From contig DAIMCS010000001.1 of assembly GCA_036726225.1 (NCBI GenBank), forward strand, positions 69,776 through 133,775: a stretch of 64,000 bases of DNA. The letters are read 5' to 3'. Within the stretch, counting starts at the first letter, position 1. Every line of letters begins with the position of its first letter. This document shows positions 21,108 through 25,591 of the stretch, one piece after another. The position numbers and the translations under genes are program-made. Under the pieces are notes generated by a model. That model was not told where the DNA came from. It ran no database searches and was given only the letters and a program-made list of their open reading frames with translations. Source of the DNA: Patescibacteria group bacterium (lineage in GTDB: Bacteria > Patescibacteriota > Doudnabacteria > UBA920).

Positions 21108-21453
21108 AATCTTGGATAAACCTTTATGGAATAAAATTCAACGAGGATGCACTTAGTTTATGGTCTTATTGCGTTTACTGAATTTTGCGTGGCTATAAAG
21201 AATGCTGCGGTTACAAGCAAAATTAACAAAATAACGCCATAAACCTTTAAGTGTTGTCTCATTGTATATACAAATTAACAAATGGCACAAATGAAACGAA
21301 TAACCACAAATCTGTTAATATCAGTTTCATTTGTGCATCCGTATATTTGTATCTTACACACTCACAAATTGCTAGTCAAAAAAGTTAAAATTTTCGATTG
21401 ATTAGTACTGCTCGGCTGAACACATTACTGTGCTTACACCTGCAGCCTATAAA

Positions 21454-21518
21454 TCAGTAAACAGTTCACAGTACGCAGTATACAGTATTGCTACTGTCTA
21501 CTGTTTCCTGTTTACTGA
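21454..21518 (-). repeat. Palindromic hairpin insertion TCAGTAAACAG...CTGTTTACTGA in the 23S 3' domain
   Basis: Absent from the E. coli-type sequence between conserved blocks. Confidence 0.5.
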
Positions 21519-21865
21519 GCACTGATGAAATACGCGGTAGTCTTCCGCGAATCTGTATTATGTATTGCTACATAAAACGAAACCTAGTTTTGTAGACGGC
21601 TTCACGCTTATATGCATTCAGCGCTTATCCAAACTAGACCTAGCTACCCCGCCATGCCCTTGACAGGACAACGGGTACACCAGAGGTCTATGCATCTCGG
21701 TCCTCTCGTACTAGAGATGCGACTACTCAAGTTTCGAACACCCACAGCAGATAAGGACCAAACTGTCTCACGACGTTTTGAACCCAGCTCGCGTACCACT
21801 TTAATATGCGAACAGCATAACCCTTGGGAGCTTCTTCACCCCCAGGATGTGATGAGCCGACATCG

Positions 21866-22362
21866 TACATAATCCATACTTTCGTATGGGGCAGACTATA
21901 TCTTGTTCTTGTCAGCGGTTTTAGGATCTGTCTCCATAACCTGCTTTTTTTTGACAAGACTCGGCGTATTATGGAAACAAGTATTAGGTATTATGTATAA
22001 CGTATTAAGCGCTGCAGACTGCAGTCGCCTTATACCTTATACTATATACTTTATACCTGCTTACATCTTCCCTTTCGGGTCAGTCGTTACGGGGTCAATG
22101 ACTAGTATTACGTATTATGTATAAAGTATTAGGTGCTGCAGTTGCAGTCACGTTATACCTTATACGTTATACTTTATACTACCCACGACTTCCCACGGTG
22201 TTGCCGGTTACTTCTTGTTTCCACTTAAGTAACTACGGGTTCACCGTTATAAGCCGAATTTATTTTCTTAGAATTATTATCACTCCGACTATTACGTCGG
22301 AGCAGACGGAACTAAGACACTTAGGTATGAGATTGCTCTCAAAGCACCCCGATTGATGGTTA
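21866..22362 (-). other. About 500-nt insertion in 23S domain V. It sits between ...GGTTTGGCACCT and CGATGTCGGCTC, next to the peptidyl-transferase centre. Its AT-rich interior contains two large palindromic hairpins built from GTATAA/GTATTA hexamers around GCTGCAG..CTGCAG loops.
   Basis: Conserved exon-like blocks were identified on both sides. The insert does not end in G, so it is not an obvious group I intron. Confidence 0.6.
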
Positions 22363-23103
22363 AGGTGCCAAACCCTCTCGTCGATGTGGACTCTTGGAGA
22401 GGATCAGCCTGTTATCCCTAGAGTAACTTTTATCCGTTGGGCTTTGCGTCTTCCACTCGAACGCATCGGATCACTAACTTCCACTTTCGTGCCTGCGCGG
22501 GTCGCCGCCCTTGCAGTCAAGCATGCTTATGCGTTTGCACTATCGGCATGATTTCCATCCATGCCTAGCATACCTTAATAAACGCCTCCGTTACCATTTA
22601 GGAGGCAACCGCCCCAGTTAAACTACCCACGAGCCACTGTCCCAAAGTAGGTTAGACTTTGGTTAGCAATTTCACTTCTACAGGGTGGTATTTCACCTGT
22701 TGCCTCCATTTCAGCTGGCGCCGAAACTTCAAAGGCTCCCACCTAGGCTAAACAATAAAAATAAAATTGCAATGACACGCTATAGTAAAGCTTCATAGGG
22801 TCTTTCCGTCTTGCTGCGGGTAGACGGCATCTTTACCGCCATTGTAAGTTCATCGGAATGTTCGTTAAGACAGTCCTCTACTCGTTATGCCATTCGTGCG
22901 GGTCGCAACTTACGCGACAAGGAATTTCGCTACCATAGGACAGTTATAGTTACTGCCGGCGTTCATCAGGGCTTGGCCAACCACCTTGCGGCGGTCGGTT
23001 TAACCTTCTGACACTGGCCAGGCATCAGCCCGTATACATCAGCTTAACGCTTTAGCACGGACCTAAGTTTTTGGTAAACAGTCGGGAGAGGTCTTTTGTT
23101 GCA

Positions 23104-23417
23104 GCCTAAGTCTTTACTTTTTGGAAGTGATGCTGTTGATAAACCCATTTTTCATATGTTAGAAAATGGATTAGTATATGAATAGCATCGCTGATCGTAA
23201 ATGAAAGAAAGGGAGGATCCAAGATGACGCCAACGGTATCAATTATGGTCGGAATAGCGCTGTGTCTATTCGCAATCACCGTTCCGGTGGTTCCTGTTCT
23301 GTGGGACACGCTCAAGGAACGCTAATGCGTTTGATGGCTGTCGAACGGGGTTGCTTCGCAATCCCGTTTTTTCTTTCTTTAAAATCTTTTTCACTTACAA
23401 AAAGTAAAGACTTAGGC
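23104..23417 (-). other. 314-nt insertion in the 23S helix-63 region, bounded by a perfect 20-bp inverted repeat GCCTAAGTCTTTACTTTTTG / CAAAAAGTAAAGACTTAGGC (IVS-like)
   Basis: The flanks match GGCAAAA...GG and GGCTGCAAC...GACGCCTG...GGAAGGTTAA of 23S. Confidence 0.6.
23224..23325 (+). CDS. Candidate 33-aa hydrophobic peptide MTPTVSIMVGIALCLFAITVPVVPVLWDTLKER. It is encoded antisense to the 23S rRNA, inside the IR-bounded insertion.
   Basis: GGGAGG SD 7 nt upstream of the ATG. Intrinsic terminator AACGGGGTTGC-TTCG-CAATCCCGTT followed by TTTTTT at 23344-23372. Confidence 0.3.
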   Translation: MTPTVSIMVGIALCLFAITVPVVPVLWDTLKER

Positions 23418-24517
23418 AAGGTATATACCTAAGGTACACCTGCTTTTTTGCCGAGTTCCTTAACGAACATTGCTCCGGACGCCTTGGGATTCTCTCCCCA
23501 TCCACCTGTGTCGGTTTACGGTACGGACACCATTAAACATGATTACGACGGTTTTCTTGGCACCTTGATTCACACTAATTCCCGTTGCCAGGTTTCTTTA
23601 TACTCTCGAGCTTGAAACCGGCTGCAAGTCCTTTTGGGACCGACAGACAGTAATGAGTTGCGGATTTGCCAACAACTCACCCTACAAGTACAACAACGCA
23701 AATAGTCAGATTACGCTAGTGTTATCATGATGCGTCACGCCTTAAATAATTTAATGGTGGTTATGGAATATCAACCATATTTTCCATCGGGTGAATCCCT
23801 TGGGACCCACTCTTAGGATCGACTAACCCAGGGACGACGATCGTTGCCCTGGAAACCTTGGATATTCGGCGAAGAGGATTCTCACCTCTATATATATTAC
23901 TTATTCCAACATTCTTACTTGTACACTGTCCAGCGCCGCTTACGCATACGCCTTCAGCCTGTGTACAACACTCCTCTACCACCAATGCAATGTTACTCGC
24001 ATTGATCCACGTCTTCGGCACCTAGCTTAGCCCCTATATATTGTCGGCGCAGGATCGCTTGACCAGTGAGCTGTTACGCTTTCTTTAAAGGATGGCTGCT
24101 TCTAAGCCAACCTCCTGGTTGTATGGGCAATCCCACATCCTTTGCACTATAGCTAGGATTTGGGGGCCTTAGACGGTGGTGTGGATTCTTCTCCATTTGT
24201 CTCGTGAAGCTTAGACCTCACGGACTGACTGCCGAGATCTTGACCAAAAGAATTCGGAGTTTGGTTGGAGCCTACCGATTGCTCAGCAGGTTTCCATTCA
24301 GTGCTCTACCTCTTTTGGGAACTCTCGACGCTAGCCCTAAAGCTATTTCGAGGAGAACCAGCTATCACCCGGTTCGATTGGAATTTCTCCCCTACGCACA
24401 GCTCATCCCCTATTTTTGCAGCAATAGTGGGTTCGGACCTCCCGTTGCTTTTACACAACGTTCATCCTGGCCATGCGTAGCTCACGCGGGTTTCGGGTCT
24501 AACTCATGCGACATATA

Positions 24518-24603
24518 AGTAGGTATAAAGTATTACGTATTAAGTATTAGGTATCAGGGCAAATGCCGAGATACGTTATACCTTATACTTCATACTTTAT
24601 ACA
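24518..24603 (-). repeat. AT-rich palindromic hairpin insertion in 23S (GTATAAAGTATTACGTATTAAGTATTAGG...ATACCTTATACTTCATACTTTATAC), the same family as 25212-25296 and the pair inside 21866-22362
   Basis: Seen directly. Confidence 0.55.
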
Positions 24604-24721
24604 AACTTATTACGGACTATTCATCCTCGCTTTCACTACACTTTCGTCTTTGTTAAGACTTAAGTAAGCCGCATAAGATTAACTCGTTGGATCATTCTTC
24701 AATAGGCACGCGGTTAGCCAT

Positions 24722-24816
24722 CACAGATACACTGATTTACACTGATTTCGCAGATATATATAGATTTAATCTATATATAAATCTGTGTTATCTGCGTCCA
24801 TCAGAGTATCTGTGAT
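24722..24816 (-). repeat. Palindromic hairpin insertion in 23S (CACAGATACACTGATTT...AGATATATATAGATTTAATCTATATATAAATCT...TATCTGTG)
   Basis: Seen directly. Confidence 0.5.
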
Positions 24817-25211
24817 CGGGCCTTCCACTCCTTGTAAGTATACGGTTTCAGATACTATTTCATTCCCCTTCCGGGGTGCTTTTCACCTTTCCCTCACGGT
24901 ACTTGTTCACTATCGGTCAATATGAGTATTTAGCCTTAGATCTTAGTCGACCTGATTTCCGACCAGATTTCTCGTGTCTGGTCGTACTCAAGAAAAAGTT
25001 AGGAAATTGCATGGTTTTTCGCGATACGGGACTATCACCCTCTTTGGTCCGCCGTTCCAGGCGTGTTCTGCTAAACAGCAAACATAATTCCCTGCCCCTT
25101 TACAGCGGGGCAATAACTTCCACTTATAACACCTAATTAGCAACGACTGTAATCTTTAATTCTCCGCCTTGCGGCTTTGAAAACACTAATTAAGTTTGGG
25201 CTAATAAAGCA

Positions 25212-25296
25212 AGTATAAAGTATTATGTATAACGTATTACGCATCCGGGCAAAAAGCCAAGATACTTTATACCTTATACTCTATACTTTATACAAA
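25212..25296 (-). repeat. AT-rich palindromic hairpin insertion near the 23S 5' domain (GTATAAAGTATTATGTATAACGTATTACG...TTTATACCTTATACTCTATACTTTATAC)
   Basis: Seen directly. Near-identical arms to 24518-24603. Confidence 0.55.
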
Positions 25297-25591
25297 CTCT
25301 ATATACTTCCGCTTTCGCTCGCCACTACTAACGGAATCTCGTTTCGTATTGCTACGAAATTGATTTATTTTCCACGTGCTACTGAGATGTTTCACTTCGC
25401 ACGGTTCCCGCATACTATACCCCACGGCATAGCAGCACATACTCTTCCAGTATGTGGGTTTCCCCATTCGGACATCCACGGATCAAAGCTCTGTTGCCAG
25501 CTCCCCGAGGCTTTTCGTAGGCTCAAACGTCCTTCATCGGCTCATATTACCTAGGCATCCACCGTATACCCTTAACTTATTTTAACTTTTA

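Follow-up and report, generated by a model that had tools for sequence, protein, structure and literature searches.

A group I intron without terminal guanosine and paralogous heptad hairpins in an inflated 23S rRNA gene of a Patescibacteria bacterium

The 23S ribosomal RNA (rRNA) gene described here lies in a stretch of 64,000 nucleotides (nt) from a Patescibacteria group bacterium (contig DAIMCS010000001.1, positions 69,776 to 133,775), which is referred to as the window. It measures 4207 nt as compared to the normal ~2900 nt. A 497-nt insert at the peptidyl-transferase centre is a group I intron of the variant that lacks the terminal guanosine (omega-G). Furthermore, both the rRNA and the intron carry hairpins with arms of 7-nt repeats, four of which are paralogous copies of one ~90-nt element. 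We regard it as very probable that the gene is a 23S gene of the candidate phyla radiation (CPR) with a group I intron at site L2500 and with hairpin extensions at helix tips that have grown by slippage and copying.

The gene matched the Rfam model RF02541 (LSU_rRNA_bacteria) from model position 1 to 2925 with 2183.8 bits and was not truncated. A 5S rRNA gene was found downstream, and the Rfam scan revealed no 16S gene in the 64-kb window. Alignment with a fetched 23S sequence of Escherichia coli (2903-nt copy) by MAFFT gave 67% identity over the aligned columns and assigned the entire excess length to discrete inserts. The genes and the larger inserts are:

21381..25587, minus strand: 23S rRNA gene, complete, 4207 nt
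20868..20983, minus strand: 5S rRNA gene, downstream of the 23S gene (Rfam RF00001, 73.6 bits)
21866-22362, minus strand: insert of 497 nt after E. coli position 2499 of the 2903-nt copy, which is U2500/C2501 in standard numbering
23107-23445, minus strand: inserts of 159, 76 and 18 nt in the helix-63 region (E. coli alignment)
24728-24818, minus strand: insert of 91 nt after E. coli position 542, helix 25
25192-25292, minus strand: insert of ~100 nt after E. coli position ~277
24525-24566, minus strand: insert of at least 42 nt after E. coli position ~643
21454-21532, minus strand: insert of 79 nt after E. coli position ~2830

Five further inserts of 17-60 nt were apparent from the E. coli alignment. 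An earlier note on this DNA had described a collinear 23S gene inflated by inserts, and both the end-to-end Rfam match, with the inserts between the conserved blocks, and the E. coli alignment agree with this description. All six inserts listed there were located at the sites given; the five smaller ones were missing from its list. Comparison with the 23S genes of relatives, which the note had proposed as a check, revealed empty, plain or differently filled sites.

Genome and metagenome stretches that were compared with the window carry L-numbers as locus labels, and "win" denotes the window's own sequence. The 23S sequences of eight related genomes were gathered via two routes. The protein encoded next to the 5S gene served as one query, and four of the resulting loci turned out to extend into the 3′ portion of a 23S gene. 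The 5′ half of the relatives' genes was obtained with a spurious open reading frame (ORF) that gene callers had placed inside the 23S gene. The adjacency of the protein gene to the 5S and 23S genes is not kept in relatives, where other protein genes lie in between; two of three source-named homologues of this protein were assigned to 'Patescibacteria group bacterium'. The window is identical to part of one Joint Genome Institute (JGI) metagenome contig and is partly reproduced in contigs from four other samples. L005, an independent assembly from another sample, contains the 3′ intron-exon junction and 118 nt of the intron at 100% identity and is devoid of ~41 nt of the 23S-5S spacer (window 21231-21271). 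Contigs from other samples end 19 nt from the 3′ junction of the intron (L003, 21847) and inside a hairpin of the intron, hairpin D (L005, 21983). The contig ends and the spacer gap around the intron give a hint of strain heterogeneity or of assembly breaks caused by repeats.

The 497-nt insert interrupts the 23S gene in the context ...GGCACCU / insert / CGAUGUCGGCUC. In the E. coli numbering of Cm2498, ho5C2501 and m2A2503, this site is U2500/C2501. In the relatives L247 and L255, whose neighbouring 23S sequences are 93-96% identical to that of the window, GGCACCT is directly followed by CGATGTCGG. The uninterrupted GGCACCU-CGAUG in both genomes fixes the intron boundaries to the nucleotide and demonstrates that gain or loss involves the element as a whole. 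As the earlier note had stated, the large insert is located exactly between U2500 and C2501, and it must be removed. At the Rfam gathering threshold, no match was obtained for the 497-nt insert. With the insert alone as query, Intron_gpI aligned from model position 1 to 253 (33.6 bits, E = 7e-7) and the conserved AAGAUAUAGUC was in place. Two blocks of ~90 nt that stayed unaligned are exactly the two intron hairpins described below, and it is their interruption of the model match that keeps the score under the cut-off. The intron-model search suggested in the earlier note was thus positive over the whole model, yet below the gathering threshold. The intron and its core elements are:

21866..22362, minus strand: ORF-less group I intron at L2500, 497 nt, last base A (Intron_gpI, empty sites, structure counts, homologues)
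22344..22353, minus strand: internal guide AUCG-GGGUGC; GGGUGC forms P1 with exon GCACCU and AUCG forms P10 with CGAU of the 3′ exon
22080-22098, minus strand: P7 5′ strand GACUG, with the P6 3′ strand and J6/7
21892..21906, minus strand: J8/7 and P7 3′ strand (ACAAGAUAUAGUCUG), the conserved AAGAUAUAGUC core being aligned to Rfam

A group I structure was written by hand on an alignment of five intron sequences with trimmed variable tips (alignment A1). It consists of helices P1, P10, P2, P3, P4, P5/P5a, P6, P7, P7.1, P8 and P9. P6 is formed by GGG-AA-GUC and GACCCC, and P7 by GACUG and UAGUC, which makes a pseudoknot with P3. Over the 65 pairs, 95.1% of the cells were paired and 16 pairs exhibited compensatory changes on both sides. 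Neither value was reached by any of 500 shuffles, and sliding the partners by 1-3 columns left 34-42% of the cells paired and 0-2 compensatory pairs. Each of the five sequences forms all six P1 pairs, among them the U.G at the 5′ splice site. Directly beside P1, the four pairs of P10 (AUCG/CGAU) are formed in 95% of the cells. A G-C pair of P7 (columns 235-382) is invariant in the five sequences, and by analogy with other group I introns we take it to be the guanosine-binding pair. With P7.1 and P7.2, located between P7 and the 3′ strand of P3, the intron resembles subgroup IA. An extra domain of ~65 nt follows P2 in the window's intron and has no counterpart in those L2500 introns that bear a LAGLIDADG_2 gene. 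As the compensatory changes were found across homologues differing in host and in peripheral content, they argue for selection on the group I fold.

The 497-nt insert is therefore a group I intron of the omega-G-less variant. The earlier note had regarded a classical group I intron as unsupported, which is overturned by the Intron_gpI match, the five-sequence fold and a published precedent without omega-G. Its expectation that the insert is excised can be retained. The intron would, as we infer, remove itself by the usual two transesterifications and thereby restore ...GGCACCU-CGAUG... at the peptidyl-transferase centre. Two other intron classes were considered and rejected for the insert. A group II intron was dismissed on account of the missing GUGYG...AY, and an archaeal bulge-helix-bulge intron was dismissed as well; in both cases there was no Rfam match, and the insert has a full group I core.

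The 3′ end of the window's intron reads ...GGAUUAUGUA with A as last base. That the insert does not end in G had been pointed out before and is confirmed by the same junction in L005. Homologous L2500 introns were found in L155, L246, L252, L253 and L259 and, more distantly related, in L269. All but the last share the terminal A with the window's intron, whereas the L269 intron ends in G. In detail, the 3′ ends are ...UUAUGUA in L246, L252, L253 and L259, ...AAUAUA in L155 and ...GUCAAG in L269. Since the distant L269 intron has the G, the terminal A is a trait that was derived within one subclade. Moving the splice sites to gain a terminal G was tried and rejected, as any move would disrupt GGCACCU-CGAUG or introduce 1-2 extra nt. 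Moreover, both sites are fixed by P1 and P10, and L155 is without a G within 9 nt of the junction. In a Coxiella burnetii 23S intron the base replacing the omega-G is reportedly also A.

An exception to the omega-G rule is known from bacterial 23S genes. By its title, the study of Raghavan et al. (2007) deals with a self-splicing Coxiella burnetii 23S group I intron that 'lacks the canonical omegaG', and in view of this exception we treat the terminal A as a variant feature and not as a reason for exclusion. Like the window's intron, the Coxiella introns Cbu.L1917 and Cbu.L1951 reside in a bacterial 23S gene, and by that title one such intron is without omega-G. In contrast, their sites are 1917 and 1951 instead of 2500, and subgroup and host differ. 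Moreover, the terminal A described here is common to at least six related introns, the window's included, from several organisms, while a distant L2500 intron keeps the G.

Three of the homologues (L155, L259 and L269) contain a LAGLIDADG_2 gene of 187-188 amino acids (aa) in the P6 loop. The endonuclease of L269 is 58% identical to that of L155, and homologues of a related intron endonuclease were named Giovannonibacteria and Parcubacteria. Along with the names given to homologues of the protein next to the 5S gene, this assigns the organism to the CPR. The LAGLIDADG_2-bearing L2500 introns of Parcubacteria-type CPR (L155, L259-L268 and L269) have the site, the P1/P10 guide, the core, P7.1 and P7.2 in common with the window's intron, and those of L155 and L259 also the ...AU(A/G)UA 3′ end. 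They differ in that P6 harbors the endonuclease gene, where the window has a heptad hairpin and a second one in P7.2. A metagenome scan with an exon plus internal guide pattern returned 120 loci; 118 were chance matches in GC-rich DNA and L155 was the sole real L2500 intron. The term 'L2500' was absent from the literature searched.

Further introns were noticed in the compared loci. In L259-L266, another CPR population, a second LAGLIDADG_2 gene (218 aa) is located ~380 nt upstream of the L2500 intron, so that presumably two endonuclease-bearing introns lie close together in domain V. L247 has a group I intron of ~300 nt with a canonical terminal G at ~L2593 (~1454-1755) and is without the L2500 intron. 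A 248-nt group I intron, again with a canonical terminal G, was seen in L254 and L255 near L1917-1931; these two are likewise without the L2500 intron. Intron content thus varies between genomes whose flanking 23S sequences are 86-96% identical.

Besides the intron, the gene contains several long hairpins, which are listed together with an intergenic one:

25205..25300, minus strand: hairpin A, 23S domain I, ~E. coli 277; apex GGC-UUUUU-GCC; -39.5 kcal/mol, z = -7.9; period 7 in Tandem Repeats Finder (TRF)
24515..24610, minus strand: hairpin B, domain II, ~E. coli 636-650; -35.9 kcal/mol, z = -7.9
22097..22187, minus strand: hairpin C, extends intron P6; apex CUGCA-AC-UGCAG; -32.8 kcal/mol, z = -5.7
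21973..22066, minus strand: hairpin D, extends intron P7.2; apex CUGCAG-U-CUGCAG; -35.4 kcal/mol, z = -6.1
24722..24822, minus strand: helix-25 hairpin insert after E. coli 542, the classical intervening-sequence site; -40.6 kcal/mol, z = -7.2
21454..21532, minus strand: heptad-periodic hairpin (CAGUnnn / CUGnnnn) near the 23S 3′ end, after E. coli 2830; z = -4.9
44722..44790, plus strand: intergenic heptad hairpin with AGTGACA / ACTTGTC units between two protein genes; TRF, z = -7.4

Hairpins A and B extend rRNA helices and hairpins C and D the intron helices P6 and P7.2, C being situated where L155 has its LAGLIDADG gene. The repeat unit of these four hairpins is the heptad GTATAAN / NTTATAC, and TRF gave period 7 with 3.7-4.9 copies for every arm. 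The earlier note had recognized this hairpin family, including the extra copies in the 497-nt insert, and had described the unit as a hexamer, which the TRF period corrects to seven. Within the 23S gene, TRF returned period-7 arrays for each arm of five hairpins. The four hairpins align in register over their full length with a mean column identity of 78% (alignment A2); in each heptad a 4-nt core is kept and positions 5-7 vary, these three being partly mismatched in the stem. Their left arms are near-identical (GTATAAA-GTATnnn-GTATAAG-GTATAAn), with matching right arms. That the heptad variants follow one another in the same order identifies A to D as copies of one arm instead of four independent slippage products. 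Hence, they are paralogous copies of one ~90-nt hairpin element. A and B have a GGC-loop-GCC apex, C and D the apex CUGCA-N-UGCAG. All four fold into 4-bp GUAU/AUAC helices split by 3x3 internal loops with about -33 to -40 kcal/mol. The folds of all hairpins, including those without GTATAA, are much more stable than those of shuffled sequence (z between -4.9 and -7.9). Matches of generic Rfam microRNA models to the hairpins, as expected of any long hairpin, were far below cut-off and were discarded.

The GTATAA pattern has 19 matches in the window, all of them in the 23S gene, where 0.02 would be expected. The motif CTGCA-N-TGCAG occurs three times in the window compared to 0.13 expected, and also at five hairpin tips in relatives; the third copy in the window, CTGCAG-CC-TGCAG at 49435, is not part of a heptad hairpin. 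A scan of a genome collection with a GTATAA-type pattern yielded more than 119 loci, mostly plain (GTATAAN)n microsatellites in Bacteroidota and few true hairpins, and none of them was in an rRNA gene. As the pattern was chosen from this window, the scan says nothing on the frequency of other heptads. Hairpins of the GTATAAN type were found in intergenic DNA of Uhrbacteria, other Patescibacteria, Saprospiraceae and a gammaproteobacterium. Among the loci L007-L125, some genomes have long hairpins built of this heptad, as in L027 (Uhrbacteria), L121 and L034. The plain arrays are often located at contig ends and are frequent in Chryseobacterium, Pedobacter, Prevotella and Flavobacterium.

The remaining hairpins have other sequences. 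The strong fold (z = -7.2) of the helix-25 insert is consistent with the hairpin that the earlier note had placed at 24722-24816. The one assigned to 21454-21518 is a hairpin as well, but it extends to 21532 and is heptad-periodic (CAGTnnn). The AGTGACA hairpin at 44722-44790 demonstrates that heptad-armed hairpins are not confined to rRNA in this genome.

Comparison with relatives revealed a high turnover of these elements. At the site of hairpin A, L254 has a plain 74-nt segment. The hairpin B site is occupied by plain helices in L258 (54 nt) and L254/L255 (63 nt) and by hairpins of other heptads in L253 (112 nt, AAARTGC) and L257 (116 nt, AATCGGA). Helix 25 is short in L258 (26 nt) and L253 (33 nt) and comprises 168-169 nt of other sequence in L254, L255 and L257, with ATTAGAA heptads in L254/L255 and CAATTAA heptads around the apex GACTGCAAACTGCAG in L257. 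L257 has a third hairpin of AGTTnAA heptads with the apex CTGCAGTTTGCGG at ~helix 45. Within the intron, P6 is without heptad insert in L253 and contains GATTAAA heptads in L246 and TAGTRAG heptads in L252. P7.2 of L252 also carries TAGTRAG heptads; in L246 and L253 it is without heptad arms and yet has a TGCA-N-TGCA apex. The 3′-terminal site is without insert in L247 and L253 (12 nt), filled by a TAGTRAG hairpin in L252 and by an insert without heptads in L246. In each of the 23S genes analyzed by TRF (the window and seven relatives), period 7 or 14 accounts for most tandem-repeat rows. Taken together, hairpins are missing at matching sites in L258, L254, L255, L247 and L253, which is a presence/absence polymorphism. 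At filled sites, the distal helix is replaced and not merely interrupted.

The largest insert outside the intron is found at the tip of the helix-63 region:

23104..23417, minus strand: 314-nt insert, tip of the helix-63 region, with a perfect 20-bp stem (20/20; 26/27 overall)
23224..23325, plus strand: putative orphan ORF for a hydrophobic protein of 33 aa (MTPTVSIMVGIALCLFAITVPVVPVLWDTLKER), antisense to the rRNA, with GGGAGGA, a strong Shine-Dalgarno sequence, 6 nt upstream
23343..23369, plus strand: terminator-like hairpin, 12-bp stem followed by a T run, 18 nt past the stop codon of the antisense ORF

The bounding 20-bp inverted repeat is perfect, as stated in the earlier note. L247 and L257 have a short hairpin at this site (83-nt segment without insert). 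L254 and L255 have an unrelated, GC-richer insert of ~400 nt at the helix-63 tip (481-nt segment) with its own closing stem and no ORF in common. The 314-nt insert is most likely an intervening sequence cut by RNase III at a non-classical site. For the 33-aa ORF, no Pfam family was found at E values up to 10, no called gene was recorded and no consensus promoter was detected on its strand. A search among 1.84 billion proteins gave no credible homologue and one marginal match, and the relatives are without the insert. The lack of homologues is compatible with an orphan minigene or with chance. Its mRNA would be fully complementary to the pre-23S RNA. The insert may carry a type-I-toxin-like minigene with the pre-rRNA as antisense 'antitoxin', an idea to which we give low weight; Pfam, the protein search and the relatives revealed neither a related toxin family nor a conserved ORF.

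How the additions arose can be envisaged as follows. The ancestor of the L2500 intron would have been a mobile intron with a LAGLIDADG endonuclease gene that has since been lost. The helix-tip additions extend variable, presumably surface-exposed rRNA helices (~E. coli 277, helix 25, ~640, the helix-63 region and ~2830). Tolerated helix tips would lengthen by 7-nt replication slippage, the two arms being held roughly complementary by selection or by template switching within a strand, and arms would be copied between sites of the same gene by ectopic recombination or gene conversion. The extensions would persist because helix tips tolerate them. An excess of heptameric simple repeats is reported for bacteria, with polymerase slippage over a 7-nt footprint as the suggested origin (PMC4692102). 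Slippage combined with copying explains why the period is seven, why only helix tips are extended, why the distal helix is replaced and not interrupted, and why the hairpins are paralogous. Several observations weigh against this account. Slippage alone leaves unexplained why the 4-nt core is conserved compared to the variable positions 5-7, and why unrelated sites have the CTGCA..TGCAG apex in common (P6 and P7.2 of the intron in three genomes, helix 25 and ~helix 45 in L257). The intron is without the terminal G that is near-universal among group I introns, so that the 3′ step of the presumed splicing could be inefficient or assisted. In addition, its Intron_gpI score of 33.6 falls short of the gathering cut-off of 50. 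Finally, no RNase III gene was found in the 64-kb window, which is uninformative for a piece this size.

With respect to the intron, two alternatives were weighed. It is very unlikely that the 497-nt insert is an intervening sequence removed by host RNases without ligation, or that the gene is a non-functional rRNA copy. Such a view would agree with the terminal A, with the Rfam score under the gathering cut-off and with the argument of the earlier note, but the complete group I core with compensatory changes across homologues speaks against it, as does P10, which pins the 3′ splice site exactly at C2501. An unligated cut at U2500/C2501 would break the universally conserved strand of the peptidyl-transferase centre. 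Moreover, outside the insert the 23S sequence scores like an intact, conserved gene, and a 23S intron without omega-G has been published as self-splicing according to the title of that study (Raghavan et al. 2007). That the inserts are assembly artefacts, produced by chimeric joins or collapsed repeats in the metagenome contig, is extremely unlikely. The breaks of L003 and L005 near the intron and its hairpins (21847, 21983) speak for such an artefact; however, L005 from a different sample reproduces the 3′ junction with 118 nt of identical intron sequence, and homologous introns bearing hairpins at identical internal positions are found in the unrelated data sets of L246, L252 and L253. Furthermore, the inserts lie at structurally sensible places in an otherwise collinear 23S.

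For the hairpins, the earlier note had favoured a mobile element that colonizes the rRNA. In this scenario, which we consider possible though unlikely, a non-autonomous element resembling miniature inverted-repeat transposable elements (MITEs) or repetitive extragenic palindromic (REP) sequences, with a conserved apex and heptad arms, would be mobilized by a genome-encoded enzyme and would insert into or replace the tips of RNA helices. Alignment of the four copies in register, their location at helix tips and the empty sites in close relatives (flanking 23S 93-97% identical) fit this view, as do the CTGCA..TGCAG apex at different sites in different genomes, its excess in the window and the GTATAAN-type hairpins in intergenic DNA of other CPR and non-CPR genomes. 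On the other hand, inspection of the flanks revealed neither a target-site duplication nor a terminal inverted-repeat signature, all four copies are in the 23S gene with none elsewhere in the 64 kb, the distal helix at filled sites is replaced, and the same sites hold other heptads in relatives. It is the arms and not the apex that differ between genomes, the reverse of typical MITEs. The TGCA..TGCA apex without arms in P7.2 of L246 and L253 looks ancestral, with arms added around it, which simple insertion cannot produce. Stem expansion in place with copying between sites fits at least as well as transposition. As a doubtful and clearly unlikely variant, the hairpins may represent an undescribed helix-tip module with a conserved palindromic apex (CTGCA-N-TGCAG or GGC-N-GCC), whose arms would be rewritten as genome-specific heptads shared by paralogues and which would spread among the tips of structured RNAs in Patescibacteria. 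A role as functional RNA modules is decidedly unlikely. In that case, the hairpins would be binding sites of lineage-specific proteins, with the core co-evolving with its partner, or RNase III signals that fragment the 23S rRNA and help to remove or degrade the intron. The regular alternation of 4-bp core and 3x3 loop, kept although the core sequence differs between genomes, would suit such a function, and so would the conserved core next to variable positions 5-7. Close relatives do without the hairpins, though, and the presence of the same arms in mature rRNA helices and in a discarded intron makes a function in the ribosome less plausible. Since L257 has three different heptads within its 23S gene, one binding partner would be no explanation. 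It also counts against this function that classical RNase III acts poorly on stems interrupted by a 3x3 loop at intervals of 7 bp. In its favour, helix 25 and ~helix 45 are known RNase III intervening-sequence sites according to a CPR survey (PMC11270868).

The whole gene is an ordinary example of a documented CPR trait. Insertions in CPR rRNA genes were reportedly first noted by Brown and colleagues in 2015. A recent survey reports insertions in 82% of CPR 23S genes; on average they add 1.3 kb in total, and a single gene contains as many as 16 of them (Tsurumaki et al. 2024, PMC11270868). According to that survey, 45% of the insertions are group I introns by Rfam, and introns cluster around the peptidyl-transferase centre (PMC11270868). 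Given the frequency of 82%, an inflated 23S gene is expected in this lineage and the overall picture is known; the statement of the earlier note that CPR lineages are known for rRNA insertions is well founded. The gene described here resembles those in the survey in its multiple inserts with a total of ~1.3 kb, in the occurrence of ORF-bearing and ORF-less introns at the same site, in the patchy distribution among relatives and in a short non-intron insert at helix 25, which along with helix 45 is listed there as an intervening-sequence site. The survey's sites 23IS9-11 (1952-2593) probably include L2500. The searched portions of its text and supplement mention no heptad hairpins, no paralogues shared by intron and rRNA and no introns ending in A, and the words 'hairpin' and 'repeat' are absent from the text as searched. 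Two features are beyond the literature searched: the subclade of L2500 introns ending in A, and four paralogous heptad hairpins that are shared by intron and mature rRNA and are swapped in relatives.

Several known systems share part of these properties. Intervening sequences excised by RNase III (Salmonella, Leptospira and Coxiella helix 45) are likewise stem-loops with a long stem at helix tips, of sporadic occurrence and sometimes with an internal ORF like the window's helix-63 insert (PMC4990558). The largest candidate described here differs from them in its location in the helix-63 region instead of helix 25 or 45, its excision is predicted, and its ORF is antisense and unrelated to the intervening-sequence protein family. 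In cyanobacteria, heptads of the short tandemly repeated repetitive (STRR) type are said to lengthen helix P12 of RNase P RNA. By its title, Vioque (1997) describes STRR heptanucleotides inside the RNase P RNA gene of heterocyst-forming cyanobacteria, which are thus, as in the window, tandem heptads inside an essential structural RNA. The phylum, the RNA and the heptads are different, and here several paralogues reside in gene plus intron and the heptads turn over between close relatives. The heptads GGGAATC of Xanthomonas and GGGGAYT of Nostoc also have a 7-nt unit with conserved and variable positions and ~4 units, include some inverted pairs able to form stem-loops and vary strongly between close relatives (PMC4692102). 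Unlike those in the window, they are intergenic, G-rich and studied as quadruplex formers, and are not components of rRNA or intron helices. The expansion segments of eukaryotic and archaeal rRNA are also located at variable surface helices; helix 25 corresponds to ES7L, helix 31 to ES9L and helix 63 to ES27L. In contrast to expansion segments, which are retained and conserved in large clades, the extensions reported here differ between genomes with 82-97% identity of the flanking 23S.

Some observations were made elsewhere in the window. Just upstream of the 23S 5′ end, 25592-25674 and 25892-25974 form an 83-nt direct repeat (96% identical, 300 nt apart); the rRNA leader is seemingly duplicated, possibly as tandem promoters or leaders. 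At 49310-49925 on the plus strand, tRNA-Ile(GAT) and tRNA-Ala(TGC), the usual 16S-23S spacer tRNAs, are isolated here, distant from the 23S gene and on the opposite strand, with no 16S gene upstream. Between the two lie 465 nt with an ORF of ~73 aa (49584-49804), membrane-protein-like by eye, and the CTGCAGCCTGCAG motif at 49435. Between 26444 and 28004, four small plus-strand genes (26445-26828, 26916-27422, 27553-27897 and 27966-28391) are each flanked by one cassette, which consists of a terminator hairpin (CAAAACGGCGGGCGG...CCGACCCGCCGTTTTTT, inner loop variable) and a promoter-like TTGACC-N17-TAACCT.

As the insert is a group I intron at a site commonly occupied in CPR, the puzzle of 500 nt beside A2503 and G2505 dissolves. 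The introns with a terminal A and an ordinary P7 G-C pair provide a sequence set for asking how the second splicing step copes without omega-G. Such introns will escape annotation pipelines that apply the Rfam gathering cut-off, since their core is split by parasitic hairpins. The heptad hairpins offer a compact, testable case of expansion-segment gain, with slippage, gene conversion or a mobile element as driver. If they belong to an undescribed helix-tip module, an active mechanism would be at work in place of passive slippage, either palindrome extension driven by breaks or by an enzyme, or a new mobile hairpin.

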